Of a DNA stretch of 24,000 nucleotides, positions 3,348 to 15,541 are shown one piece after another (position 1 is the stretch's first letter; each line of letters begins with the position of its first letter). The notes under the pieces were generated by a model. The model saw nothing but the letters and a program-made list of their open reading frames with translations. It was not told where the DNA came from and did not search any database. The stretch comes from an uncultured Lachnospiraceae bacterium. Lineage in GTDB: Bacteria; Bacillota; Clostridia; Lachnospirales; Lachnospiraceae. Location: NCBI GenBank assembly GCA_964369755.1, contig CAYJFY010000020.1, positions 1,408 through 25,407 of the forward strand, read 5' to 3'. The translations under genes were made by a program, and so were the position numbers.

Positions 3348-4229
3348 ATGGGTGTATGGATTTTATGTGTGGTTTTGTCTTTGGTAGTTATGATATTGAT
3401 TATCAAGTTACGTCTTATGAAAAAAAGCATGACAGAAATCCATACACAAATAGATACATGTTTGAGCGAAGATACTAATGCTTTGATTACTGTTACATCA
3501 AATGACAAAGATATCAAGTATCTGGCAATGAAACTGAATGAAGAACTAAGGATGCTTAGGTCTCAGAGTTTGAAGTATAAAAATGGTGACAATGAGTTAA
3601 AAGAAGCGGTTACGAATATTGCACATGACCTTCGAACTCCGCTGACTGCATTATGTGGTTACTTAGAACTGTTAGAAGAGAAAGAAAAAACAGAGGATGT
3701 AGCACGTTATATTGAATTAATTCGCAACCGTGCTGATAATCTAAAGGGACTGACAGAAGAGTTATTTCGATACTCAGTTATTATCTCTACATTGGATGAT
3801 ATCAATCTAGAGCCACTTTCTGTGAATCGTGTTTTGGAAGAATGTATTGCTAAGTCCTATGATTCGCTTACAGAGAGAGGAATTACACCTAGAATTGATA
3901 TTACTACGAATAAAATCATTCGAACACTAGATAAGGCAGCACTAATACGAGTGATTGAGAATATCATAAGCAATGCAATCAAGTACAGTGATGGAGATTT
4001 GGACATCGAATTGACAGATAGCGGAGAAATGATATTCACCAATACAGCAAGACGATTGGACGATATACAGGTTGGAAAGTTATTCAACCGTTTTTTTACG
4101 GTTGAAACAGCAGGGAAGGGAACTGGATTGGGACTGTCTGTTGCAAAAACATTGGTGGAACAAATGAATGGAAAGATAGCTGCTGAATATGTGGAGGGTA
4201 GGTTGAGTATTTGTATTTCTTATCATTAG
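3348..4229 (+). CDS. Sensor histidine kinase (single N-terminal TM, HisKA + HATPase_c; no extracytoplasmic sensor domain)
   Basis: The H-box is IAHDLRTPLTAL, the N-box NIISNAIKYS, the D/F region FNRFF and the G-box GTGLGLSVAKTLVEQMNG. The only hydrophobic segment is WILCVVLSLVVMILII, starting at residue 4. Confidence 0.9.
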   Translation: MGVWILCVVLSLVVMILIIKLRLMKKSMTEIHTQIDTCLSEDTNALITVTSNDKDIKYLAMKLNEELRMLRSQSLKYKNGDNELKEAVTNIAHDLRTPLTALCGYLELLEEKEKTEDVARYIELIRNRADNLKGLTEELFRYSVIISTLDDINLEPLSVNRVLEECIAKSYDSLTERGITPRIDITTNKIIRTLDKAALIRVIENIISNAIKYSDGDLDIELTDSGEMIFTNTARRLDDIQVGKLFNRFFTVETAGKGTGLGLSVAKTLVEQMNGKIAAEYVEGRLSICISYH

Positions 4230-4245
4230 TTCATTGTACGAAAAA

Positions 4246-4272
4246 TAAAATGCGGTCGTTTGACCGCATTTT
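4246..4272 (+). terminator. Rho-independent terminator after the histidine kinase gene
   Basis: There is a perfect 11-bp stem, AAAATGCGGTC (4246-4256) and GACCGCATTTT (4262-4272), with a 5-nt loop (4257-4261). The flanks are A-rich 5' and T-rich 3'. It lies 17 nt after the HK stop codon. Confidence 0.7.
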
Positions 4273-4274
4273 AT

Positions 4275-4303
4275 TTGACAATTTTCAAATTTATAAGTAT
4301 AAT
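4275..4303 (+). promoter_or_regulatory. Consensus sigma-A type promoter driving the toxin-antitoxin / R-M gene string
   Basis: TTGACA is at 4275-4280 and TATAAT at 4298-4303, separated by an exact 17-bp spacer. An AGGAGG RBS (4312-4317) follows. A small TACGTA palindrome (4305-4310) sits between the -10 element and the RBS. Confidence 0.65.
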
Positions 4304-4324
4304 GTACGTATAGGAGGTGGGTCG

Positions 4325-4675
4325 TTGGAGAATCAATCAAATAATTCAGACATAATAAGATTTCTTGAAAAAGTTAAAATATTATTATCTTCAGGGAAAT
4401 ATGATTTTGTTCCAAGAAGAAAAAATCTACAATCCTTAGCACTGCATGGACTTACAATCGCAGATGCTAGAGATGAGATTTTAGGATTAGTTGTAGATGA
4501 TTACTATAAAGGTCCTAAGCGAGATTTTGATACAAATAGACCCGGAGAAATATGGGAGTTTAAAAAGAATATTAATGGAATAAATTTCTATGTAAAAGTA
4601 AAAATAGTAAATGAAAATGGTGAAGATATATTGAAATGTCTAGGATTTCATGAAGATGAATTTTATAATAGATAG
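4325..4675 (+). CDS. MqsR-like type II toxin (putative ribosome-independent mRNA interferase)
   Basis: The start is assigned to TTG 4325, 7 nt after AGGAGG. The ORF-track start at 4211 would span the terminator and promoter. The sequence (..LHGLTIADARDEILGLVVDDYYKGPKRD...IWEFKK..FYVKVKIV..ILKCLGFHED) parallels my recollection of E. coli MqsR (LGLDFDGMCNVIIGLSESDFYKSM...IWQDVY..VYLKITV..LIVSFKE). The toxin-first gene order followed by a Zn-ribbon/HTH protein is as in mqsRA. Confidence 0.6.
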   Translation: MENQSNNSDIIRFLEKVKILLSSGKYDFVPRRKNLQSLALHGLTIADARDEILGLVVDDYYKGPKRDFDTNRPGEIWEFKKNINGINFYVKVKIVNENGEDILKCLGFHEDEFYNR

Positions 4676-4687
4676 GTGGTGGAGTTG

Positions 4688-5692
4688 ATGAAAAAATATT
4701 GTGAAGAATGTGGTAGAGAAGTAAAAACTACAATAATTGTAAAAAAAGAAGATTATAATGTTTGTGGTGAAACAATAGAAGTAGATGCTCAAATATTGAC
4801 ATGTGAAGAATGCGGTGAAGAATTTTATTGTGAAGAACTTGATAGTCAAACATTGATAGAAGCATACAATAAATATCGTAGACGACATAAACTTTTATTT
4901 GCTGAAGATATAAAGAGAATCAGAGTGCAATATGGACTAAGCCAGAGAAGTTTTGCAAAACTTCTTGGTTGGAGCGACAAAACTATTCGTAGATATGAAA
5001 ATGGTTCGATACAAGATAAATCACATAATAGTTTGCTTTTATTTTTGAAAGAACCTGAAAATATGAAAAGCTACATTGAAGAAAATGAAATAAAATTGGA
5101 TGATAAGCAAATCAATAAGCTATTACAGACAATTGAACAATTAGAACAAGGTAATGAGGATCAAATGAGGAGACGTCTATTTGAAATATTTTTTTCAACA
5201 ACTCCATCAGAAGATAACGGATTTAAAGTTTTTGATTATGATAAAACATGTGCAATGGTACTTTTTTTTGTAAATAAAATGGATGAGTTATTAAAAACAA
5301 AACTGTTGAAGCTCATCAATTATTCTGATATGATTTTTTATAAAGAGAATGGGGTATCTATTTCAGGAAGTCGCTATATTCATATGCCGTTTGGACCTGT
5401 TTTGAAAAATCATGATATTTTATTTGGAAAAATGGAATCTGACAATATTGCTCATATCAATATTGCAACCGAAGGGAAATATGAAAAACATCAAGTGGTT
5501 TCGGAGCATTCGTTTCCGAAGGACATATTATCTAAGAGTGAAATTGAAGTTTTAGAACGTGTATACAAGAAGTTCAAAGATTTTGGCTCTGTAGAAATAT
5601 CTGATTATTCTCATAAAGAAAAAGGATATTGCTCAACATCACATGGAGATATAATTTCATATTCGTATGCCAAATATATGTCATTGGATTAG
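4688..5692 (+). CDS. Tri-domain antitoxin: MqsA/YgiT-type zinc ribbon + XRE-family HTH + C-terminal Panacea (DUF4065, SocA/GepA-like) domain
   Basis: The zinc ribbon is CEECGREV...(about 30 aa)...CEECGEEF. The HTH reads IKRIRVQYGLSQRSFAKLLGWSDKTIRRYENG. The DUF4065-like core reads LLKTKLLKLINYSDMIFYKENGVSISGSRYIHMPFGPVLKNH. ATG 4688 follows a GGTGGTGGAG RBS, and in-frame GTGs at 4676 and 4679 are alternatives. It abuts the stop of the toxin gene. Confidence 0.75.
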   Translation: MKKYCEECGREVKTTIIVKKEDYNVCGETIEVDAQILTCEECGEEFYCEELDSQTLIEAYNKYRRRHKLLFAEDIKRIRVQYGLSQRSFAKLLGWSDKTIRRYENGSIQDKSHNSLLLFLKEPENMKSYIEENEIKLDDKQINKLLQTIEQLEQGNEDQMRRRLFEIFFSTTPSEDNGFKVFDYDKTCAMVLFFVNKMDELLKTKLLKLINYSDMIFYKENGVSISGSRYIHMPFGPVLKNHDILFGKMESDNIAHINIATEGKYEKHQVVSEHSFPKDILSKSEIEVLERVYKKFKDFGSVEISDYSHKEKGYCSTSHGDIISYSYAKYMSLD

Positions 5693-5754: not shown

Positions 5755-7470
5755 TTGACGGATAAAGAGTTAAAAGAATTAAAAGCAAAATTATGGAGTG
5801 CAGCAGATACATTACGTGCAGATTCAGGTTTGAAGTCTACTGAGTATTCGACGCCGATATTAGGTTTGATATTTCTAAGATTTGCAGACAGCAAGTATAG
5901 GGAATACGAAACCTGTATCGCAGAAGAATATAACCAGAATAAAGGTTCACGAATGGAAAGAGAAATCAGCGAAATAGCTATTGAAAAATGTGGTTTTTAC
6001 TTGCCAGAAGAGGCGAGATACGAATATTTACTGAATCTACCAGAGAGTGAAAATATTCCTGAAAAAGTAAAGAATGCTATGTTGGCTGTTGAGAAATATA
6101 CTCCAAATTTAGCAGATACCTTACCTAAAGACGAATATTATGCTGTTGATGGTAAAGATGGAAAGGCGGTTGTAAAAAGGCTGCTAAAAGCTTTTAAAGA
6201 TATACCAGATAATACGACAATTGATATTTTTGGTGAAATATATGAGTATTTTCTTGGAGAATTTGCACTTGCAGAAGGTCAAGGGGGCGGACAGTTCTTT
6301 ACTCCACCGTCAGTAGTTAAATATATGGTAGAGGTTCTTTCACCTGTTGACGGCGAGATATTCGATCCTGCTTGTGGTAGTGGTGGGATGTTTGTGCAAG
6401 CGGCTCACTATATCCAAAAGCATAAGAAAAACGGAAATAATATTAATCTTCGTGCTTATGGTGTAGAAAAGGACAAGTCTACAGTAAATTTAGCTAAAAT
6501 CAATATGGCATTACATAATATTCGTGGAACTATTATCGAAGCAAATAGTTACTATTCGGATCCATATGAATGTTTTGGGCGATTTGATTATGTTATGGCA
6601 AATCCACCATTTAATGTAGATGGAGTTGAACTTGAGGATGTTAAAAACCAAGCGAGGTTCAATACATATGGTGTGCCACAGAATAAAACCAAAAGCAAAA
6701 AATCAGCAGGAGAAACTGTACCAAACGGCAACTACTTATGGATTAACATGTTTGCAACATCTTTAAAAGCAAATACTGGAAAAGCAGCACTAGTTATGGC
6801 AAACTCTGCGTCGGATGCAGGGAAAAGTGAAAAAGACATTAGAACTAAATTGATAGAAAGTGGTGTAATAAGTCAAATGGTAACATTGCCTTCTAATATG
6901 TTTTCCACGGTAACATTGCCAGCAACCCTATGGTTTTTTGATGCTGCACGTAAAAATAAAGATGAAATTTTATTTGTAGATGCAAGAAATGTATTCACTC
7001 AAGTGGATAGAGCACATAGAAAATTCACTGATGAGCAAATCAAAAACCTTGCTATAATCTCAAGACTTTATGAAGGTAATACCGATGAATTCACTGCTTT
7101 GATTGAGGAATATAAAGTCGAAATCACTCGCTTAGAACAAGGTGGAGAAATTGAAGAGAAGAAAGATATAGAATATTGGCAGTCCAATATTGATTGGTTA
7201 CAAGAACGATTCCCAGAAGGTAAATATCAAGATGTAACTGGACTTTGTAAAGTTGCAAAAATAGAGGGTGAGGATGGAATCAAAGACCAAGACTATTCAT
7301 TAAACCCTGGACGATATGTTGGGGTTGTTATCGAAGATGATGGTATGACAGAGGAAGAATTTAAAGAAGAAATGTTGAGCTTACAGGCCGAACTCGAAAA
7401 GCTAAATGAAGAAGCACGAGAGCTTGAGAATAAAATTTCACAGAATTTGAAAGGACTGTTCAATGAATAA
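5755..7470 (+). CDS. hsdM: Type I restriction-modification system DNA methyltransferase subunit (N6-adenine)
   Basis: The N-terminal HsdM_N-like region reads LWSAADTLR...ILGLIFLRF. Other motifs are GQFFTPPSVV, motif I DPACGSGGMF and motif IV MANPPFN. TTG start at 5755 is 6 nt after a GGAGGA RBS. Confidence 0.95.
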   Translation: MTDKELKELKAKLWSAADTLRADSGLKSTEYSTPILGLIFLRFADSKYREYETCIAEEYNQNKGSRMEREISEIAIEKCGFYLPEEARYEYLLNLPESENIPEKVKNAMLAVEKYTPNLADTLPKDEYYAVDGKDGKAVVKRLLKAFKDIPDNTTIDIFGEIYEYFLGEFALAEGQGGGQFFTPPSVVKYMVEVLSPVDGEIFDPACGSGGMFVQAAHYIQKHKKNGNNINLRAYGVEKDKSTVNLAKINMALHNIRGTIIEANSYYSDPYECFGRFDYVMANPPFNVDGVELEDVKNQARFNTYGVPQNKTKSKKSAGETVPNGNYLWINMFATSLKANTGKAALVMANSASDAGKSEKDIRTKLIESGVISQMVTLPSNMFSTVTLPATLWFFDAARKNKDEILFVDARNVFTQVDRAHRKFTDEQIKNLAIISRLYEGNTDEFTALIEEYKVEITRLEQGGEIEEKKDIEYWQSNIDWLQERFPEGKYQDVTGLCKVAKIEGEDGIKDQDYSLNPGRYVGVVIEDDGMTEEEFKEEMLSLQAELEKLNEEARELENKISQNLKGLFNE

Positions 7471-8152
7471 TGAAAATTTACAATACTCTTTACAACCACT
7501 GAATAAGTTATTAGAGCAGTATGAGAAAGTAAATATAACTTTGATTAATAGTGTTTCAAATACATTACTAGACATTATAAAAATGTTTGAGAATATAGAA
7601 ATATCTCTTTGTGAAAATCAATATAAATTGGCTGAAACATTATCTTTGCTTGGAGGAGTACCGGCGAATTTCAAGGCATTAGAAAAACTAGGAGATAATC
7701 AGTTTATATGGTTTAAATCATTAGATAAAGGCTTGGTAGAAAAATTGAATACAAGCGAAAATACGAATCATTTATTGGATGAGTATATTAAGAAAGGTGA
7801 ATGTTTTGAAACTGATGAAATAATTAAAGCAATCAAAAAATCTAGTGCAATAAAAAAAAGAAAATTATTGTTTTCACAATCAATTACTGCTTATCGTAAT
7901 AAACATTATTTGCTAGGATGTGTAGGGCTAATTTCTATAATTGATATTTTTCTCAGTCAAATCAGTGGAGATGCAACAACAAAATTTATGAAAAAAGTGG
8001 ATTATATAGTAAAACAAGCATGTGCAGATGAAGTTCTTAATGATTACGATGCCAAATATTTTTATATGTCATTTGGTATTGAGAGAACATTAAAAACGTT
8101 ATTTGATTTTTCTGATTTTACGAAAGATGAACCAAACAATATACGAAACTAG
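7463..8152 (+). CDS. Hypothetical protein (229 aa, soluble, predicted helical) inserted between hsdM and hsdS
   Basis: ATG 7463 overlaps the hsdM stop by 8 nt (ATGAATAA), and an AAGGA lies 8 nt upstream. It is a clean 690-nt ORF in an otherwise tightly packed operon. I recognise no catalytic motif. The region LFSQSITAYRNKHYLLGCVGLISIIDIFLSQISGD recalls uncharacterised Firmicutes and phage-associated helical proteins. Confidence 0.6.
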   Translation: MNNENLQYSLQPLNKLLEQYEKVNITLINSVSNTLLDIIKMFENIEISLCENQYKLAETLSLLGGVPANFKALEKLGDNQFIWFKSLDKGLVEKLNTSENTNHLLDEYIKKGECFETDEIIKAIKKSSAIKKRKLLFSQSITAYRNKHYLLGCVGLISIIDIFLSQISGDATTKFMKKVDYIVKQACADEVLNDYDAKYFYMSFGIERTLKTLFDFSDFTKDEPNNIRN

Positions 8153-8221
8153 ATTGTGTTAAGCTTATTCATTTGATTTATGCATTGTTGCTTGTTGACA
8201 ATATAGAAGGTGGTGAATTGG

Positions 8222-9466
8222 ATGGGTAATTGGGAAGAAAAGAAACTTGGTGATATTTTGAAAATCAAGCATGGCTATGCTTTTGAAGGAGAATTTATTA
8301 CTAATATTGAAAATGAAAATATTCTTGTTACTCCTGGGAATTTTAAAACAGGTGGTGGATTCAAATATTCAGGCAAGAAGTTTTATAATGGTAAGATTCC
8401 AGAAGAGTATAGATTAAAATCTAATGATATTATACTAACCATGACGGATTTAAGCAAAGAAAGTGATACTTTAGGGTATGCTGCATTAGTACCTAATGAT
8501 AAAAGGATATATTTGCATAATCAGCGAATTGGCTTGGTATATGACATTGATAATCGAGTAAGTAAAAATTTTTTGTATTGGATGTTAAGAACACCTTGGT
8601 ATCAAAAAAGAATAGTAAATACATCTAATGGAGCAAATGTTAAACATACTTCACCTAGCAGGATATATGCGTATGTCACAAAAGTCCCAGATTTCTCTAC
8701 ACAAGAACGCATTGCTGATATTTTATCTAATTATGATGATTTAATTGAAAATAATACTCGTAGGATTGAATTACTAGAAAAAGCATCACAGGAATTATAT
8801 AAAGAATGGTTTGTGCGTTTTCGTTTCCCTAATCATGAAAATACCAAGTTTGTAAATGGACTGCCAGAGGGATGGGAAGAGAAGAAACTAAAAACAATGT
8901 TTGATATAGGGTCGAGCAAAAGAGTATATTTATCTGATTACGTGGAAGAAGGGATTCCGTTTTATAGATCTAAAGAAATCATCCGACTTTCGGAAGGTCA
9001 AGCAATTAATGAACCATTATATATTAGTGACCAAGCTTTCAACAACTTTAATAATAAATTCGGAGCACCTAATAAAAATGATATCCTTATTACATCGGTA
9101 GGTACTATTGGTAAATGCTATATCTCGGATGGGCATGAATTTTATTTTAAAGATGGAAACCTAACTTGGCTAAGAAGTTCTAAAAATCCTTTGACTGCTC
9201 TCTTTGTTTTTTGTTGGTTAAATAGCAATTATGGACAACAGATACTAATAACATCTACTATTGGTACGTCGCAGAGTGCATTAACGATTGAAAATTTAAA
9301 AAACATTAAATTAATAGTACCATCTGAGGAAGTATTGATAAAGTTTACAAATCAAATTACGCTTATATTCGAAGAAAAAAATCAACTACAAAAACAAAAC
9401 CAAAATATAGCAAAACAACGTGATTTATTATTGCCACGTCTTATGAGCGGAAAATTGGAGGTGTAA
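8222..9466 (+). CDS. hsdS: Type I restriction-modification system specificity subunit (two target-recognition domains)
   Basis: TRD-leading strings are duplicated: GNWEEKKLGDILK at the N-terminus and EGWEEKKLKTMFD mid-protein. The central conserved spacer is IADILSNYDDLIENNTRRIELLEKASQELYKEWFVRFRFPNHE. The C-terminal conserved helix is QRDLLLPRLMSGKLEV. ATG 8222 follows a GAAGGTGGTG RBS, although the ORF track begins at 8210. Confidence 0.9.
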   Translation: MGNWEEKKLGDILKIKHGYAFEGEFITNIENENILVTPGNFKTGGGFKYSGKKFYNGKIPEEYRLKSNDIILTMTDLSKESDTLGYAALVPNDKRIYLHNQRIGLVYDIDNRVSKNFLYWMLRTPWYQKRIVNTSNGANVKHTSPSRIYAYVTKVPDFSTQERIADILSNYDDLIENNTRRIELLEKASQELYKEWFVRFRFPNHENTKFVNGLPEGWEEKKLKTMFDIGSSKRVYLSDYVEEGIPFYRSKEIIRLSEGQAINEPLYISDQAFNNFNNKFGAPNKNDILITSVGTIGKCYISDGHEFYFKDGNLTWLRSSKNPLTALFVFCWLNSNYGQQILITSTIGTSQSALTIENLKNIKLIVPSEEVLIKFTNQITLIFEEKNQLQKQNQNIAKQRDLLLPRLMSGKLEV

Positions 9467-9468
9467 AT

Positions 9469-9996
9469 ATGTCTGAAGAAATAAAAACACATTTAGTATC
9501 AAAAGTTTTTGATAATTTAAAAGATATTACACCTGCACTTATAGCCGTTGATATATGCACAGGTCTATTTATTTTTTTACCTGAAGAAATTTTATTACAA
9601 ATGAGATTAAATTTAATACCTGACTCGTGGTATTTAGTCATTAGTTTGATATTTATATTTTGCATATCATTAACAATTGTTATTGGTCTACGGTATATGT
9701 TAAATAAAGTTTATTTACAAATAAAGTATAAAAAAAGAATTAAAGGTTTAAGAACTAGTTATATTAATCTAAATAAAAAGCATAAAAACTTGATAAAAGA
9801 GTTGTTGAGATCTCAAGAAAAATCACTTCATTTTAATTATTATTCTGGTGATATAAAGTATTTGGTTAAAAATGCATTTATATATCAAACATCAAATATG
9901 ACAACACAATATGGAGAAACACACTTATACTTTCCATATAGTCCTCAACCTTGGCTTATAGATTTATATAATAGAGAACCAGAATTATTTGAGTAA
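9469..9996 (+). CDS. Small membrane protein, possibly superinfection-exclusion protein B (SieB)-family, inserted between hsdS and hsdR
   Basis: ATG 9469 is 2 nt after the hsdS stop, with a GGAGG RBS inside the hsdS 3' end. There are two hydrophobic segments (ITPALIAVDICTGLFIFL and WYLVISLIFIFCISLTIVIGL), a basic linker (KYKKRIKGLR) and a roughly 90-aa C-terminal domain ending YFPYSPQPWLIDLY. This pattern (..LFLP.., two TM segments, ..FPY.LQPW..) matches my recollection of Firmicutes proteins annotated as SieB family. It is unverified. Confidence 0.5.
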   Translation: MSEEIKTHLVSKVFDNLKDITPALIAVDICTGLFIFLPEEILLQMRLNLIPDSWYLVISLIFIFCISLTIVIGLRYMLNKVYLQIKYKKRIKGLRTSYINLNKKHKNLIKELLRSQEKSLHFNYYSGDIKYLVKNAFIYQTSNMTTQYGETHLYFPYSPQPWLIDLYNREPELFE

Positions 9997-10008: not shown

Positions 10009-13000
10009 ATGCCAAACTTTATATCAGAAGATAACATTGAGCAAGCTGCCATTCAAAAACTTGTAGATACAAATAAGTACAATTCCATCAATTGTTATAC
10101 TGCTGATCCCGACACCTTAGAGGATGGCAGTGGTAGAGCAGAGAAAAAGCAGGTTATATTACCAACTGTATTGCTAGAGAGTCTTGTACGGTTGAATCCA
10201 CAATTGCCTTTGCATTGTGTGGAGAAGGTAGCAGATGAATTGTCTAAAACACCTACAACAGTGGAATTGATGCGTGCCAATTATCTTGCATATCAACAAA
10301 TTCGAAATGGTATAAAAGTAGAGTATGATGAAAAAGGAAAAGAGCGTAAATCCAAGTTACAGATAATCGATTTTGAAGAACCTACAAACAATGATTTTAC
10401 TGTGGTATCCCAGCTATGGATTCGTGGAGAGGTTCACTGGCGTAGACCTGATTTGATTCTCTATGTAAATGGATTACCAATGGTATTCATCGAACTTAAA
10501 AATTCTAATATTAATGTGAAAAATGCGTATGATAAGAATTTAAGAGATTATCTAAAAGATATTCCATATCTATTTCACTACAATCAAGTCTGTGTACTAT
10601 CTAATGGTACTGAAACGAGACTTGGTAGTTTTGCTGCTGGATATGAACATTTTTTTGAATGGTTAAAAGTAGAAGATGAAAAGGAAAACCCAGATCGCAA
10701 AGCGATCAAAGAACATGCAATCAGTCTGGAATATTTGATTGATGGTTTACTAAAAAAAGAGACACTGATTGATTATATAGAAAATTTCATTTTATATGAC
10801 AGACAGAGAGTAAAGCTGATAGCGAAAAATCATCAATACCTTGGGGTAAACAATGCTTATAATGCTTTTCTAAATCGTGGAAATCTTGAGGGTAAATTGG
10901 GTGTATTCTGGCATACTCAAGGTAGCGGGAAGAGTTACTCAATGGTTATGCTTGCACGTAAAATTAAACATAAAGTCAATGGAAATTTCACATTTTTAGT
11001 TATAACAGATAGGGCAGATTTAGACACGCAAATCTGGAAGAACTTTTGCCGAACAGAATTTATCTCAAAGGATGAAAATGTTCGTCCGGCAACGGGAGCA
11101 AAGCTTCGAGAAGAATTAAAAAGCAATAAGACTATTTTGTTTACACTCATACATAAATTTAAATACGATAAGGGGAAATCGTATCCTATTTTATCAGAAC
11201 GTAATGATATTATTGTAATCGTTGATGAAGCGCACCGAACACAATATAAAGACTTGGCAGAGAATATGAGAAAAGGGTTGCCGAATGCACAATTCATGGC
11301 ATTTACAGGAACGCCATTGTTAGGTGCGAAAAGATTGACAAACTCTTGGTTCGGCGATTATGTTTCTGAGTATAATTTCGCCCAATCAGTAAAGGATAGT
11401 GCTACAGTTCCGCTATATTATGTAAATGGGATGAAAGAAGTTCGCCTACAAAACGATTTCTTGGATGAGGATTTGGCTGAAATACTGGAAGAGGAAGATT
11501 TAAAAGATGCTGAAAAAGAACGTCTTGAAAATCATTATGCAAAAGAGTTAGAAGTTATTAAGCGTGATGATCGGCTAGATAAAATAGCGAGACATATAGC
11601 GTATCATTTTCCACGTAGAGGATTTTTAGGAAAGGGCATGGTCATCTCTGTTGATAAATTTACAGTTGTTCGAATGTATAATAAGGTGAATTATTATTGG
11701 GATGAAGAAATTAAAAGCATTAACGCAGAAATCACAAAAACAGCTGATCAAGATAAGCGAATAGAATTGAAGCGAATGGTAGACTACATGCGAAAAGTTC
11801 AAATGGCAGTTGTCGTTAGCGAAGAAGATAAGGAAGAAGAAAAATTTCAAGAAGAAAAATTAACGATAAAACCACATAGAGATAGAATGAATGCTGTGGA
11901 TGAGAATGGCTTTGATATTGAAGATAACTTCAAAGACCCAGAACATCCCCTGAGTCTAGTTTTTGTGTGCTCCATGTGGCTAACTGGTTTTGATGCTCCT
12001 TCAGTATCAACTCTATATTTAGATAAACCGATGAAAGGTCATACCTTGATGCAGACCATTGCACGAGCAAACAGGGTGTACCCAAACAAAGAAAATGGTA
12101 TAGTCATCGGTTATCTTGACGTATTCAAATCTCTGAAAAAGGCATTGGTGGACTATGCAACAGATGATAGTGACGAGCTACCTGTTAAGGAAATAGACAA
12201 GCTGTATGACCAACTTTTAGAGTCGATTGAAGTTACTAAGACGTTTTGTCTAGCACAAGAAATTGATTTATCAAGATTAAATAATAGTGAAGATACATTT
12301 GCTAATCTATCTGATTTCGAAGATTTTGCTAATATTATTGTATCCAATGATGAAGTGAAGAATGAGTTTAGGGTGCTTGCTAATACAGTTGGGAATCTAT
12401 ATGAATCTTTGCGTCCAGATATTTTTAAAATGAATTTTGAAGCTAGCGATAAAGAAAAAATTCTTTATTTAAAAGAAATTATTGATGGAAAAATAAGACC
12501 AGAAAAAATAGAAAAAGCAAAGTACAGAATTGGTGAACTATTGAATCAAAGTATTATTGCAGAAGAGACAGCACCATATGGCACTAAAAATTCAGAAGAA
12601 ACAATGCAAATTATCACTATGGCAGAGCCGATTGATTTATCTAAAATAGATATTGATATATTAAAGGATAAAATAAAAAGATCAAATCATAAAAATTTAG
12701 AAATAGCAAATTTAAGACAGTATATAGATAAAAAATTAGCTCAGATGATAAAGAAAAATGTCTCCCGTATAAGTTTTGCCGAAAGATTTCGAAATATTAT
12801 AGATGAGTATAATGCAGGCGGTGCGTATAACGACGAATTTTATAAAAAACTATTAGAGTTTATGAGTGAATTAAGAGAAGAAGAAAGTAGACATGTCAAA
12901 GAAGAGTTAAGTGAAGAGGAATTAGAACTTTTTGATCTATTACAAAAGGAAAAGCTTACAAAAGAAGAATTGAAGCGTGTCAAACTTGCTGCAAGGCAAC

Positions 13001-13215
13001 TGTATCAGACATTAAAGGCAAAAAAAGATGAACTTTTTGTTGTAGGTTGGGAAAAAGATGAACAGCCAAAAGAAAAAGTAAGAAAAGAAATCAAGACTAT
13101 ATTAAATAAATATTTGCCAGATAGTTATAATCGGGAAATTTTTGTAAGTAAATCAGATACTATTTTCTACCATATTGTTGATCAGGCACTAATGGGTGTG
13201 AACTGGATTGCTTAA
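10009..13215 (+). CDS. hsdR: Type I restriction endonuclease R subunit (PD-(D/E)xK nuclease + SF2 DEAD/DEAH translocase)
   Basis: The N-terminal nuclease core is RPDLILYVNGLPMVFIELKN. Helicase motifs are I (HTQGSGKS), II (IVDEAHRTQY), III (MAFTGTP) and VI (QTIARANR). The C-terminal helical region has FAERFRNIIDEYNAG, typical of HsdR tails. An AAGGAG RBS lies 7 nt upstream. Confidence 0.95.
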   Translation: MPNFISEDNIEQAAIQKLVDTNKYNSINCYTADPDTLEDGSGRAEKKQVILPTVLLESLVRLNPQLPLHCVEKVADELSKTPTTVELMRANYLAYQQIRNGIKVEYDEKGKERKSKLQIIDFEEPTNNDFTVVSQLWIRGEVHWRRPDLILYVNGLPMVFIELKNSNINVKNAYDKNLRDYLKDIPYLFHYNQVCVLSNGTETRLGSFAAGYEHFFEWLKVEDEKENPDRKAIKEHAISLEYLIDGLLKKETLIDYIENFILYDRQRVKLIAKNHQYLGVNNAYNAFLNRGNLEGKLGVFWHTQGSGKSYSMVMLARKIKHKVNGNFTFLVITDRADLDTQIWKNFCRTEFISKDENVRPATGAKLREELKSNKTILFTLIHKFKYDKGKSYPILSERNDIIVIVDEAHRTQYKDLAENMRKGLPNAQFMAFTGTPLLGAKRLTNSWFGDYVSEYNFAQSVKDSATVPLYYVNGMKEVRLQNDFLDEDLAEILEEEDLKDAEKERLENHYAKELEVIKRDDRLDKIARHIAYHFPRRGFLGKGMVISVDKFTVVRMYNKVNYYWDEEIKSINAEITKTADQDKRIELKRMVDYMRKVQMAVVVSEEDKEEEKFQEEKLTIKPHRDRMNAVDENGFDIEDNFKDPEHPLSLVFVCSMWLTGFDAPSVSTLYLDKPMKGHTLMQTIARANRVYPNKENGIVIGYLDVFKSLKKALVDYATDDSDELPVKEIDKLYDQLLESIEVTKTFCLAQEIDLSRLNNSEDTFANLSDFEDFANIIVSNDEVKNEFRVLANTVGNLYESLRPDIFKMNFEASDKEKILYLKEIIDGKIRPEKIEKAKYRIGELLNQSIIAEETAPYGTKNSEETMQIITMAEPIDLSKIDIDILKDKIKRSNHKNLEIANLRQYIDKKLAQMIKKNVSRISFAERFRNIIDEYNAGGAYNDEFYKKLLEFMSELREEESRHVKEELSEEELELFDLLQKEKLTKEELKRVKLAARQLYQTLKAKKDELFVVGWEKDEQPKEKVRKEIKTILNKYLPDSYNREIFVSKSDTIFYHIVDQALMGVNWIA

Positions 13216-13283
13216 TATGACTTTTGTACCGAAAAACATGAAGAATATTGCTTATAGTTGCGAATATAGAGAGGGGGACAATT

Positions 13284-14012
13284 TTGAATATTTCATTGCT
13301 ATTGGAAAAAAAGGATTTATATAATAAAAACTTATACTTGATACCAGAAGAGGTGTTGAAAAAAATAAGAACAAGCTTTCATGTAGAATTTACACATAAC
13401 TCCACAGCTATCGAGGGTAATACTTTGACATTGATAGAAACAAAAGTATTATTAGAAGACAACGTTTCTATAGGTGGCAAAAAACTTCGTGAGATTTACG
13501 AAGTTGTGAATAACCACAAAGCTACTTTATATGTAGAAGAATGTATTGTACAAAATTTACCCTTAGATGAAAAAATCACAAAGGAAATTCATGCAATTAT
13601 CAATGAAAATATCATTGTTGGTGGAGTGTATCGAAATGATGTGGTTATGATTACAGGTGCGAGCTTCAGACCGCCCGTGGGTCAACAAATGTATCACGAA
13701 GTAAAAAATTTCTTTGCTGACTTAGATTATCGAACTGACCTAAACCCTATCGAACTTGCAGCATGGACGCACGCTGAATTTGTTCGTATTCATCCTTTTG
13801 TTGACGGAAATGGACGGACTGCAAGGCAGATTATGAACTATCAGCTTATGCGGAACGGATTTCCGCCTGTGTCAATATCAGCGAAGGAAAGTTTAGCTTA
13901 TTACAATGCACTTGATAAATATGGCTCTGTAAGAGATTTAACGTCATTTGCGGAACTTCTTGCAAATCTGGTAGAGAAAAGGTTTGATGAGTTTTTAGGA
14001 GATTTTGTATAG
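13284..14012 (+). CDS. Fic family protein (putative AMPylase) with an N-terminal auto-inhibitory helix motif (class II architecture)
   Basis: The Fic active-site motif HPFVDGNGRTAR is at 13791-13826. The inhibitory (S/T)xxxE(G/N) motif STAIEG is at 13401-13418. The start is assigned to in-frame TTG 13284, 6 nt after GAGGGGG, although the ORF track begins at 13248. Confidence 0.9.
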   Translation: MNISLLLEKKDLYNKNLYLIPEEVLKKIRTSFHVEFTHNSTAIEGNTLTLIETKVLLEDNVSIGGKKLREIYEVVNNHKATLYVEECIVQNLPLDEKITKEIHAIINENIIVGGVYRNDVVMITGASFRPPVGQQMYHEVKNFFADLDYRTDLNPIELAAWTHAEFVRIHPFVDGNGRTARQIMNYQLMRNGFPPVSISAKESLAYYNALDKYGSVRDLTSFAELLANLVEKRFDEFLGDFV

Positions 14013-14143: not shown

Positions 14144-15541
14144 ATGAATAAATTTGTGAATCGAATATCAGAACTCAATACTCTGAATTCTGAGTACGAA
14201 AGTAAACAATCTAATTTTGTTGTCATTTATGGTCGTCGTAGGGTTGGAAAAACATCATTGATTACAGAGTTTTTGAAGGACAAAGAAGATAGCATTTATT
14301 TTCTGGCTACAGAAGAATCGGAGAAACAAAATTTAAAAGGTTTTAGAAATCTTGTGGCTGATTATTTAGGGAATGAGCTTTTGAAGTCTGCGGACGTAGA
14401 GTGGTCAACGGTGTTTGAATATTTAGAAAAGTATCAATCCAATAGTAAACAGGTTATTGTTATTGATGAGTTCCAATATATTGGACAATCCAATCCTGCC
14501 TTTCCATCCGTGGTTCAAAAAATATGGGATACTCTGTTGAAAGATAGCAATATAATGATGATTATCTGTGGATCCTATATTTCTCTGATGAAGTCCCAAG
14601 CACTTAACTATTCAAGTCCTTTGTATGGGAGAAGAACGGCACAGATTAAGTTGAAACAAGTAGAATTTAAACATTATAATGAATTTTATCAAAACAAGTC
14701 TAATGAAGAACTGATTCCATTCTATGCGGTAACAGGAGGAGTTCCCAAGTATATTGAAATGCTCAGTGACCATGATGATGTGTATCGTGCGATAGAGAAA
14801 AATATTCTAGATAAGCAAAGTTTCTTGTATGAGGAACCTTATTTTCTGTTACAGAAAGAGGTAAATGAAATTGGGAGTTATTTCACACTGATTAAGGCTA
14901 TCGCTTTCGGCAATCATAAGCTTTCTGATATTTCAGCTGAAATGGGGGTGAAAGCCACAGGTATTACAAAATATCTGAAAGTTTTAATGGATTTAGATCT
15001 TGTGGTAAGAGAGGTACCGATTACGGAATCCAATCCAGAAAAATCAAAAAAAGGATTATATAAGTTGACGGATAACTATATAGCATTTTGGTTTAAATTC
15101 GTATACCCTTATCGAGTTTTTCTAGAAAGGGGGGAGAAGGATTTTGTTTTAAATAAGATGAAAGAAGGATTTGTTCAGAATTATGTATCCTATGTATATG
15201 AAGATATCGCAAGAGAGAAGATGTGGGCACTAAATATAGCGGGAACGTGGGGATTCAACTTCGATAAATTAGGTCGATATTGGGGGAATAAACTAGGTGA
15301 AGTAGATATTGTAGCAATTGATAGCATCGAGAAAAATTTGATTGTAGGGGAATGCAAATATACAAAATCTGAAAAGGGATTGAATGTACTTCACGCATTA
15401 GAAGAAAAAGGCGAGGTATTAAGAAAACTCACAAAATCTAAAAATGTAGAATATATTCTCTTCAGCACAGGTGGATTTACAAAAGGACTTTTAGATGTAG
15501 CGGAACAAAATCCCAAAATAAAACTTATTGATAAGCTGTGA
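14144..15541 (+). CDS. ATP-binding protein: P-loop ATPase (archaeal-ATPase/ATPase_2-like) + winged-helix + C-terminal DUF234-type PD-(D/E)xK nuclease-like domain
   Basis: The N-terminus FVNRISELNTLNSEY...FVVIYGRRRVGKTSL contains Walker A, and Walker B is VIVIDEFQY. The wHTH-like region is LSDISAEMGVKATGITKYLKVLMDLDLVVRE. The C-terminal GEVDIVAIDS...LIVGECKY fits a D...ExK nuclease signature. Confidence 0.8.
   Translation: MNKFVNRISELNTLNSEYESKQSNFVVIYGRRRVGKTSLITEFLKDKEDSIYFLATEESEKQNLKGFRNLVADYLGNELLKSADVEWSTVFEYLEKYQSNSKQVIVIDEFQYIGQSNPAFPSVVQKIWDTLLKDSNIMMIICGSYISLMKSQALNYSSPLYGRRTAQIKLKQVEFKHYNEFYQNKSNEELIPFYAVTGGVPKYIEMLSDHDDVYRAIEKNILDKQSFLYEEPYFLLQKEVNEIGSYFTLIKAIAFGNHKLSDISAEMGVKATGITKYLKVLMDLDLVVREVPITESNPEKSKKGLYKLTDNYIAFWFKFVYPYRVFLERGEKDFVLNKMKEGFVQNYVSYVYEDIAREKMWALNIAGTWGFNFDKLGRYWGNKLGEVDIVAIDSIEKNLIVGECKYTKSEKGLNVLHALEEKGEVLRKLTKSKNVEYILFSTGGFTKGLLDVAEQNPKIKLIDKL

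Follow-up and report, generated by a model that had tools for sequence, protein, structure and literature searches.

What is the 229-codon open reading frame (ORF) that separates hsdM from hsdS in a type I restriction-modification (R-M) operon of an uncultured Lachnospiraceae bacterium? The frame, referred to here as orf229, lies in a stretch of 24,000 nucleotides (assembly GCA_964369755.1, contig CAYJFY010000020.1, positions 1,408 to 25,407 of the forward strand), which in its entirety we call the window. An earlier note on this DNA had proposed that orf229 is an R-M-associated accessory or backup defence factor, or that it modulates methyltransferase assembly. On the evidence presented below, we consider it likely that orf229 derives by truncation from a gene of a family with a coiled coil and a HEPN-like domain, of which it represents the 5′ portion, and that it is the recently inactivated remnant of a predicted RNase gene for back-up defence. 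The window's copy is probably a nonfunctional allele, and most likely a dead remnant, because the catalytic motif and the last core helix were lost through a 43-nt frameshifting deletion. The features that bear directly on this reading are as follows.

5755-7470, + strand: hsdM, methyltransferase subunit of a type I R-M system, 571 aa (Pfam N6_Mtase, E = 5e-77; HsdM_N, E = 7e-21)
7450-7455, + strand: Shine-Dalgarno-like AAAGGA, 7 nt upstream of the orf229 ATG, read from the sequence
7463-8152, + strand: orf229, 229 codons (ORF list; 47% identity to residues 47-268 of the intact homologue P0002)
8133/8134, + strand: deletion junction, a 43-column gap relative to loci L001 and L002 in DNA alignment A1, accurate to a few nt
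8131-8229, + strand: out-of-frame relic of the ancestral C-terminus, T-KQYTKLDCVKLIHLIYALLLVDNIEGGELDG-stop (translation of the other frame, and tblastn)
8206-8216, + strand: Shine-Dalgarno-like GAAGGTGGTGA for hsdS, inside the relic and conserved as the same GAAGGTGGTGA in L001 and L002
8222-9466 (8210-9466 according to the ORF finder), + strand: hsdS, specificity subunit (Pfam Methylase_S in two stretches, E = 2.5e-27)

The presence of a 229-codon ATG frame at 7463-8152, between hsdM and hsdS, was borne out by the ORF list and by the sequence; its ATG at 7463 overlaps the hsdM stop codon (TAA, 7468-7470) by 8 nt (ATGAATAA). Judged from its relatives, orf229 is a real coding sequence and not a chance ORF, because homologues reach E = 9e-57 and 167 cluster representatives are found at E <= 1e-3. 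Intact homologues are 250 to 320 aa long. The sole relative of the 229-aa protein in a search of 5.8 billion proteins was P0002 (310 aa, 47% identical), whose gene directly follows hsdM on two metagenome contigs and which runs on beyond the point at which orf229 stops (...DEPHTLNRHWIAHGNTKKHYEKLDCIKLINLIYALLLIANIEGGELDE). Position 8152, which the earlier note had taken as the end of the gene, turned out not to be a natural terminus; 43 nt are missing at about 8133/8134, the frame is shifted, and the ancestral C-terminus persists out of frame.

When P0002 was aligned to the window with tblastn, two high-scoring segment pairs were obtained in different frames; residues 47-268 correspond to 7475-8143 and residues 280-309 to 8134-8223 (80% identity), and residues 269-279 have no counterpart in the window. 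The 43 missing nucleotides encode HTLNRHWIAHGNTK, which covers the family's invariant Rx4H motif, and the frameshift caused by their loss creates a premature TAG at 8150-8152. All of the 18 other sequences in alignment A2 contain an NRHWIAHG block that is missing from orf229, and when its codons were sought in every frame of the window, none was found. The all-helical character and the lack of an enzymatic motif that had been reported for orf229 hold good, the motif being absent through deletion. Of the ancestral protein, orf229 still encodes a portion of the coiled coil and the initial helices of the helical domain; as deduced from the sequence, the catalytic loop has gone from the product, and so has the domain's last core helix, which the out-of-frame relic would have supplied.

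We place the lesion in the window, as opposed to an insertion in its relatives, because the conserved EP-LDC spacing is nearly fixed across the family (of 137 members, 130 have 19 residues here and the others 18-20) and amounts to only 14 nt in the window. The sequence on either side of the gap is colinear with L001 and L002, no other frameshifts were seen in the 10-kb operon, and tblastn detected no second copy elsewhere in the window. Since the relic frame is free of stop codons and still highly similar to its homologue, the deletion looks recent. The relic's TAA overlaps the start of hsdS (ATGGGTAA) at the ATG at 8222. The ancestral gene would have spanned 7463-8229 plus 43 nt and encoded about 269 aa; its 5′ end was translationally coupled to hsdM and its 3′ end to hsdS. 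Programmed frameshifting as a means of rescue was considered and rejected; the corrected frame would still be without 14 deleted codons, including those for R and H. As a separate observation, orf229 contains an A8 homopolymer (7851-7859, + strand, ATAAAAAAAAGA) that is in frame and represents a potential slippage site, and no sign of its use for slippage was seen.

The relic also has a bearing on the annotation of hsdS. The true start of this gene is most likely the ATG at 8222 (MGNWEEKKLG...) and not the GTG at 8210 selected by the ORF finder, a preference that is based on homology and on the Shine-Dalgarno-like GAAGGTGGTGA. The GTG falls within the dead C-terminal coding sequence of orf229, and in L001 and L002 the gene after the homologue begins at the equivalent ATG (ATGAGTAAATGGGAAGA). 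Because hsdS has this strong Shine-Dalgarno-like element of its own, it should still be translated, albeit without coupling. The 57-nt “spacer” in front of hsdS is, when read in the other frame, dead coding sequence.

What the gene once encoded is best approached through its intact relatives. The family comprises at least 167 clusters at 50% identity (exhaustive HMMER, cluster representatives at E <= 1e-3), and its members have a variable N-terminal coiled coil followed by a C-terminal helical domain. A search seeded with P0002 yielded 18 more members, none of them named or carrying a Pfam domain, and a search of the 5.8-billion-protein set with profile A4 returned close members only, again none named or with a Pfam domain. 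We found no family match for orf229 itself in Pfam, NCBIfam, PADLOC or PHROGs; a CDI_toxin_EC869_like hit on orf229 was below threshold (E = 0.005, 17.5 bits against a cutoff of 27) and was treated as noise. When 41 full-length members and 10 isolated C-terminal domains were compared with Pfam, only scattered coiled-coil or chance matches were seen, and no PADLOC-DB v2 model was matched by more than one of the 41 full-length members (or at all by orf229).

In an alignment of 137 full-length members (residues numbered according to P0002), only R270 and H275, of the motif R-[H/N/D]-x3-H, are invariant, and N269, W272, G276, R277, D202, G196, F260, E264, P265, D286 and K289 are nearly so. The residue following R is H in 123 members, N in 12 and D in 2. 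Position 202, on an upstream helix, is D in 134 members and E in 3 and does not stand in an Ex3[KR] context. The HEPN signature consists of Rx4-6H with a polar N, D or H after the R and a second, upstream acidic residue, typically in Ex3[KR], and the R and H are catalytic in KEN, PrrC and RloC (Anantharaman et al. 2013, PMC3710099). Both the Rx4-6H motif and the polar residue after R are found in the family; the window's copy does not have the former, its NRHWIAHG codons having been deleted.

An AlphaFold2 model built from the 137-sequence alignment (mean predicted local distance difference test score [pLDDT] of 88; predicted template modeling [TM] score of 0.70) is all-helical: residues 1-119 form a long helical hairpin or coiled coil, residues 130-305 make up the helical domain, and the motif lies on a short helix (270-274) directly before the last long helix. 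This model supersedes a single-sequence prediction for P0002, which was unusable (pLDDT 40). A Foldseek comparison with BFVD gave four matches of probability 1.00, the best of which was a phage-metagenome protein labelled DUF4209 (E = 2e-5). We regard the C-terminal domain as quite probably HEPN-like; the assignment is made because of the motif, the genomic context and one structural link, and not because of a profile match or a solved structure.

As regards genomic context, a scan of one genome per species with profile A5 produced 19 loci, all from metagenome-assembled genomes of gut or rumen origin and most of them labelled Clostridia, mainly Oscillospiraceae and Lachnospiraceae. The earlier note had proposed looking for homologues in hsdM-hsdS junctions, and they do recur there; in 7 of the 19 species-level loci (L009-L012, L017, L021 and L027), the family gene (X) occurs in the order hsdM-X-hsdS-(cargo)-hsdR, with HsdM about 60% and HsdR about 52% identical to those of the window. 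In all seven, X starts 8-14 nt inside hsdM and has an intact motif, and in six there is a clean 8-nt ATG start (ATGAGTGA, ATGAGTAG or ATGGGTGA). Metagenome loci L001-L006 display the same hsdM-X-hsdS arrangement. In two further species-level loci, X directly follows a gene for an MmeI-type (type IIL) R-M enzyme (L016, 4075-8002; L020, 4980-8606) after gaps of 214 and 27 nt, respectively, and because of these neighbours the association is with methyltransferase-bearing R-M genes generally and not just with type I hsdM. All nine R-M-adjacent members lie directly downstream of the methyltransferase-bearing gene and on the same strand.

Elsewhere, members occupy defence or mobile islands. One member lies between a Shedu SduA_C gene and Abi_alpha/PIN genes, one adjoins AbiH, and one, with HNH and Kiwa genes next to it, is found in an island bounded by integrases; others lie beside integrases with MobL or after a RelA_SpoT gene. 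Downstream of the gene for a divergent member, P0084 (253 aa; L030, 4271-5343), and only 6 nt away from it, comes a 101-aa Polbeta/NTP_transf_2 gene, that is, a gene for a minimal nucleotidyltransferase (MNT), the customary partner of HEPN proteins. The family is thus a passenger of defence islands and R-M systems. It does not look phage-borne, because no relatives were found in phage genomes (tblastn with P0013) or in a scan of IMG/VR; among plasmids (tblastn, P0013), there was one weak Bacillus match. The suggestion of an R-M-associated back-up defence factor is therefore supported for the family, with its HEPN-type motif and its recurrence after methyltransferase genes and in defence islands, and is not supported for the window's copy, from which the motif and the last core helix are missing. 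As a side observation, between the window and L001 the embedded protein is 47% identical and HsdM is 83% identical (residues 1-569; L001, 675-2381), and therefore the embedded gene either evolves much faster than hsdM or is exchanged as a cassette.

Several known systems resemble this one. C6orf70/DUF4209 (PF13910) is classified as HEPN and has been reported from operons related to R-M (Anantharaman et al. 2013, PMC3710099). It shares with the present family the Rx4H motif with a polar residue after the R, and the best structural match of the family model bears its name. However, there was no match to PF13910 among the 41 full-length members (E <= 0.01) or the 10 C-terminal domains (E <= 10), fusions to TPR and WD40 are reported for DUF4209 whereas the present family has an N-terminal coiled coil, and the window's copy is without Rx4H altogether. 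PrrC of EcoprrI is a HEPN-type RNase encoded in an hsdMSR operon that provides a second line of defence, being silenced by the R-M complex and freed by a phage anti-restriction peptide (PMC3710099; bioRxiv 10.1101/2024.01.29.577857). The likeness to PrrC and RloC lies in the embedding of the gene in a type I hsd operon, as seen in the window, in the seven species-level loci and in L001-L006. However, PrrC and RloC have an N-terminal ABC/Rad50-like NTPase of their own, whereas no ATPase match was obtained for the present family, which has long helices or a coiled coil instead. Their positions differ as well; the PrrC gene lies between hsdS and hsdR, and the embedded members of the present family lie between hsdM and hsdS.

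HEC-08, a DUF3644 HEPN protein embedded in Hma systems, loses its defence activity upon mutation of the motif histidine (bioRxiv 10.1101/2024.01.29.577857). HEC-08 and the DUF4145-type proteins contain HEPN domains, alone or in fusions, and are found time and again in association with R-M and other defence operons. The present family keeps such company; however, these are different sequence families, and the present one has no profile match to them. There is also a likeness to HEPN-MNT modules, in that P0084 has an MNT gene 6 nt downstream, but at this one locus only, and neither the window nor the R-M-embedded loci contain an MNT gene.

The following mode of action can be envisaged. The helical domain would adopt a HEPN fold and act as a metal-independent RNase, and the intact protein would dimerise through its coiled coil, serving in abortive infection or as a back-up effector by cleaving RNA of the cell or of the phage, or arresting growth. 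The R-M-embedded form would be made together with HsdM, and the R-M complex may hold it inactive until a phage anti-restriction protein disables the complex, as with PrrC in EcoprrI. In the window, where R-M has been retained, inactivation of the allele would be in keeping with the burden that a toxic RNase imposes.

A number of points weigh against this interpretation. The deletion is judged from homologues that are just 47% identical, with no near-identical intact allele found, and the window is a single assembly, so that a small chance of assembly error must be allowed for. In roughly half of the loci, no neighbouring gene belongs to an R-M system. No Pfam link to any HEPN family was detected (41 full-length members at E <= 0.01; 10 isolated C-terminal domains at E <= 10), and there was no sequence match in the PDB, where the family profile returned coiled-coil noise and C-terminal profile A6 nothing under E = 0.2. 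The Foldseek search of an AlphaFold model that the earlier note had recommended was divided in its outcome; in addition to the DUF4209-labelled BFVD match, it gave nothing significant in the PDB (no match at E < 0.09), the sole HEPN structure listed there being TT1696 (1ufb; E = 5, TM score of 0.47). The DUF4209 label on the viral protein is an automatic annotation, and the aligned residues are not visible. Finally, physical control by HsdM is proposed purely by analogy with PrrC.

It is this last element that is developed furthest in a more specific and rather unlikely proposal, according to which the intact family would be a guard RNase without an ATPase sensor, cotranslated with, and held inactive by, gamma-class N6-adenine methyltransferase modules. 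Such a protein might dock on HsdM or on MmeI-type enzymes via its coiled coil and fire when phage anti-restriction proteins disturb the R-M complex. If this were true, it would represent a PrrC-like safeguard lacking the ATPase sensor and widespread in gut and rumen Clostridia, and the window would show the guard lost and the R-M system kept.

Among the alternatives, the one that fares best, although we think it improbable, is that orf229 is still translated and that its truncated 229-aa product has a noncatalytic role, either binding HsdM or the M2S complex via its coiled coil or acting as a regulator, a dominant-negative form or a decoy of the effector. The start codon of orf229, the AAAGGA element and the 8-nt coupling to hsdM are all intact, the 229-codon frame is free of internal stops, and catalytically dead HEPN domains are known to serve as binding modules (PMC3710099). 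However, the last core helix has been lost along with the motif, so the helical domain is unlikely to fold; the motif is kept in 10 of 10 other R-M-embedded loci examined; and the relic, still 80% identical to its homologue, points to a recent lesion and not to an adapted short form.

Quite improbable, in our estimation, is that the family as a whole is a structural accessory (an assembly or specificity factor) of gamma-class N6-adenine methyltransferases, its R/H motif being used for binding and not for catalysis. The invariable position of the nine R-M-adjacent members behind a methyltransferase-bearing gene counts in favour of such a role, as does the lack of a significant match to a solved HEPN structure. 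However, other members occupy defence or mobile islands with no methyltransferase nearby, one is paired with an MNT gene as HEPN toxins are, and the motif fits the HEPN catalytic signature, including the polar residue after the R. Moreover, the R-M system of the window is apparently intact without a functional copy: hsdM, hsdS and hsdR are full length (as judged by Pfam and by alignment to relatives), with orf229 broken. The intactness of these genes, together with the existence of members that have no R-M neighbour, argues against an essential role in methyltransferase assembly and weakens the earlier idea of an assembly modulator.

Least probable of all is that the 43-nt gap arose as an artefact of assembly or sequencing, or that the assembler captured a minority variant, and that the gene of the organism is whole (about 269 aa): only one contig has the exact 229-aa protein (a look-up found it on no others), and among the other short members of the family, several derive from assemblies that are fragmented or of low coverage, but a clean 43-nt loss in nonrepetitive sequence is atypical of sequencing error, and the flanks are colinear with L001 and L002 in an operon that shows no further frameshift. 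Among other truncated alleles, which could have been a sign of recurrent inactivation, two were traceable (P0137 and P0159), to a contig of 0.7x coverage and a heavily fragmented assembly.

The wider setting of the operon is a row of codirectional genes, which in addition to hsdM, orf229 and hsdS contains the following.

4211-4675, + strand: MqsR-like ORF (E = 5e-4, a weak match under the Pfam cutoff)
4676-5692, + strand: MqsA-type zinc-ribbon/HTH protein fused to a SocA/Panacea domain, 338 aa (E = 1e-18)
9469-9996, + strand: SieB-like membrane protein, 175 aa (Pfam SieB PF14163, E = 9.8e-16, 58 bits against a cutoff of 26)
10009-13215, + strand: hsdR, restriction subunit, 1068 aa (Pfam HSDR_N, SWI2_SNF2, ResIII, T1R_D3-like and T1RH-like_C)
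13248-14012, + strand: Fic-domain protein (PADLOC candidate PDC-S04, E = 4e-36; SoFic match)
14144-15541, + strand: ATPase_2/DUF234 protein, codirectional with the row

This row of genes has a G+C content of 0.24-0.30, compared with 0.35-0.41 outside it, and is flanked by ordinary chromosomal genes; upstream these encode a two-component system and an ABC transporter, and downstream they comprise mnmA and the gene for a chemotaxis receptor. The R-M operon and its neighbours look like an 11-kb low-GC chromosomal defence island. The MqsR-like and MqsA-SocA/Panacea genes (4211-5692, + strand) abut each other directly 5′ of hsdM and are probably a toxin-antitoxin or regulatory module that heads the operon. 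HsdR of the window aligns over residues 1-1068 with HsdR of related loci. The SieB-like gene (SieB being superinfection exclusion B), a second embedded gene, begins 2 nt past the hsdS stop and lies between hsdS and hsdR. We consider this slot a variable cargo site, because related operons carry different cargo there: AbiJ_NTD4 in L009, RelA_SpoT in L012 and unknown proteins elsewhere. When C-terminal profile A6 was compared by hhalign with this AbiJ_NTD4 protein, entertained as possible kin of the family, no relation was seen.

That HEPN RNases reside in R-M operons is a principle known since 2013. A survey of “guilt-by-embedding” has already covered type I operons (bioRxiv 10.1101/2024.01.29.577857), and experiments in Vibrio cholerae have validated embedded genes of one such operon (PMC11411939). 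The family itself is unnamed and lies outside all of the curated models checked. Because the principle is known, the finding will be useful to the specialist rather than surprising. At the level of annotation, we would list orf229 as a disrupted gene, the “intergenic” 8153-8221 as dead coding sequence, and 8222 as the start of hsdS. The intact relatives offer a concrete candidate for the back-up defences sought by “guilt-by-embedding”, with a fixed hsdM-hsdS slot in one lineage of gut and rumen type I operons. The window adds to this a case of a defence operon that has shed a probably toxic passenger and kept restriction.

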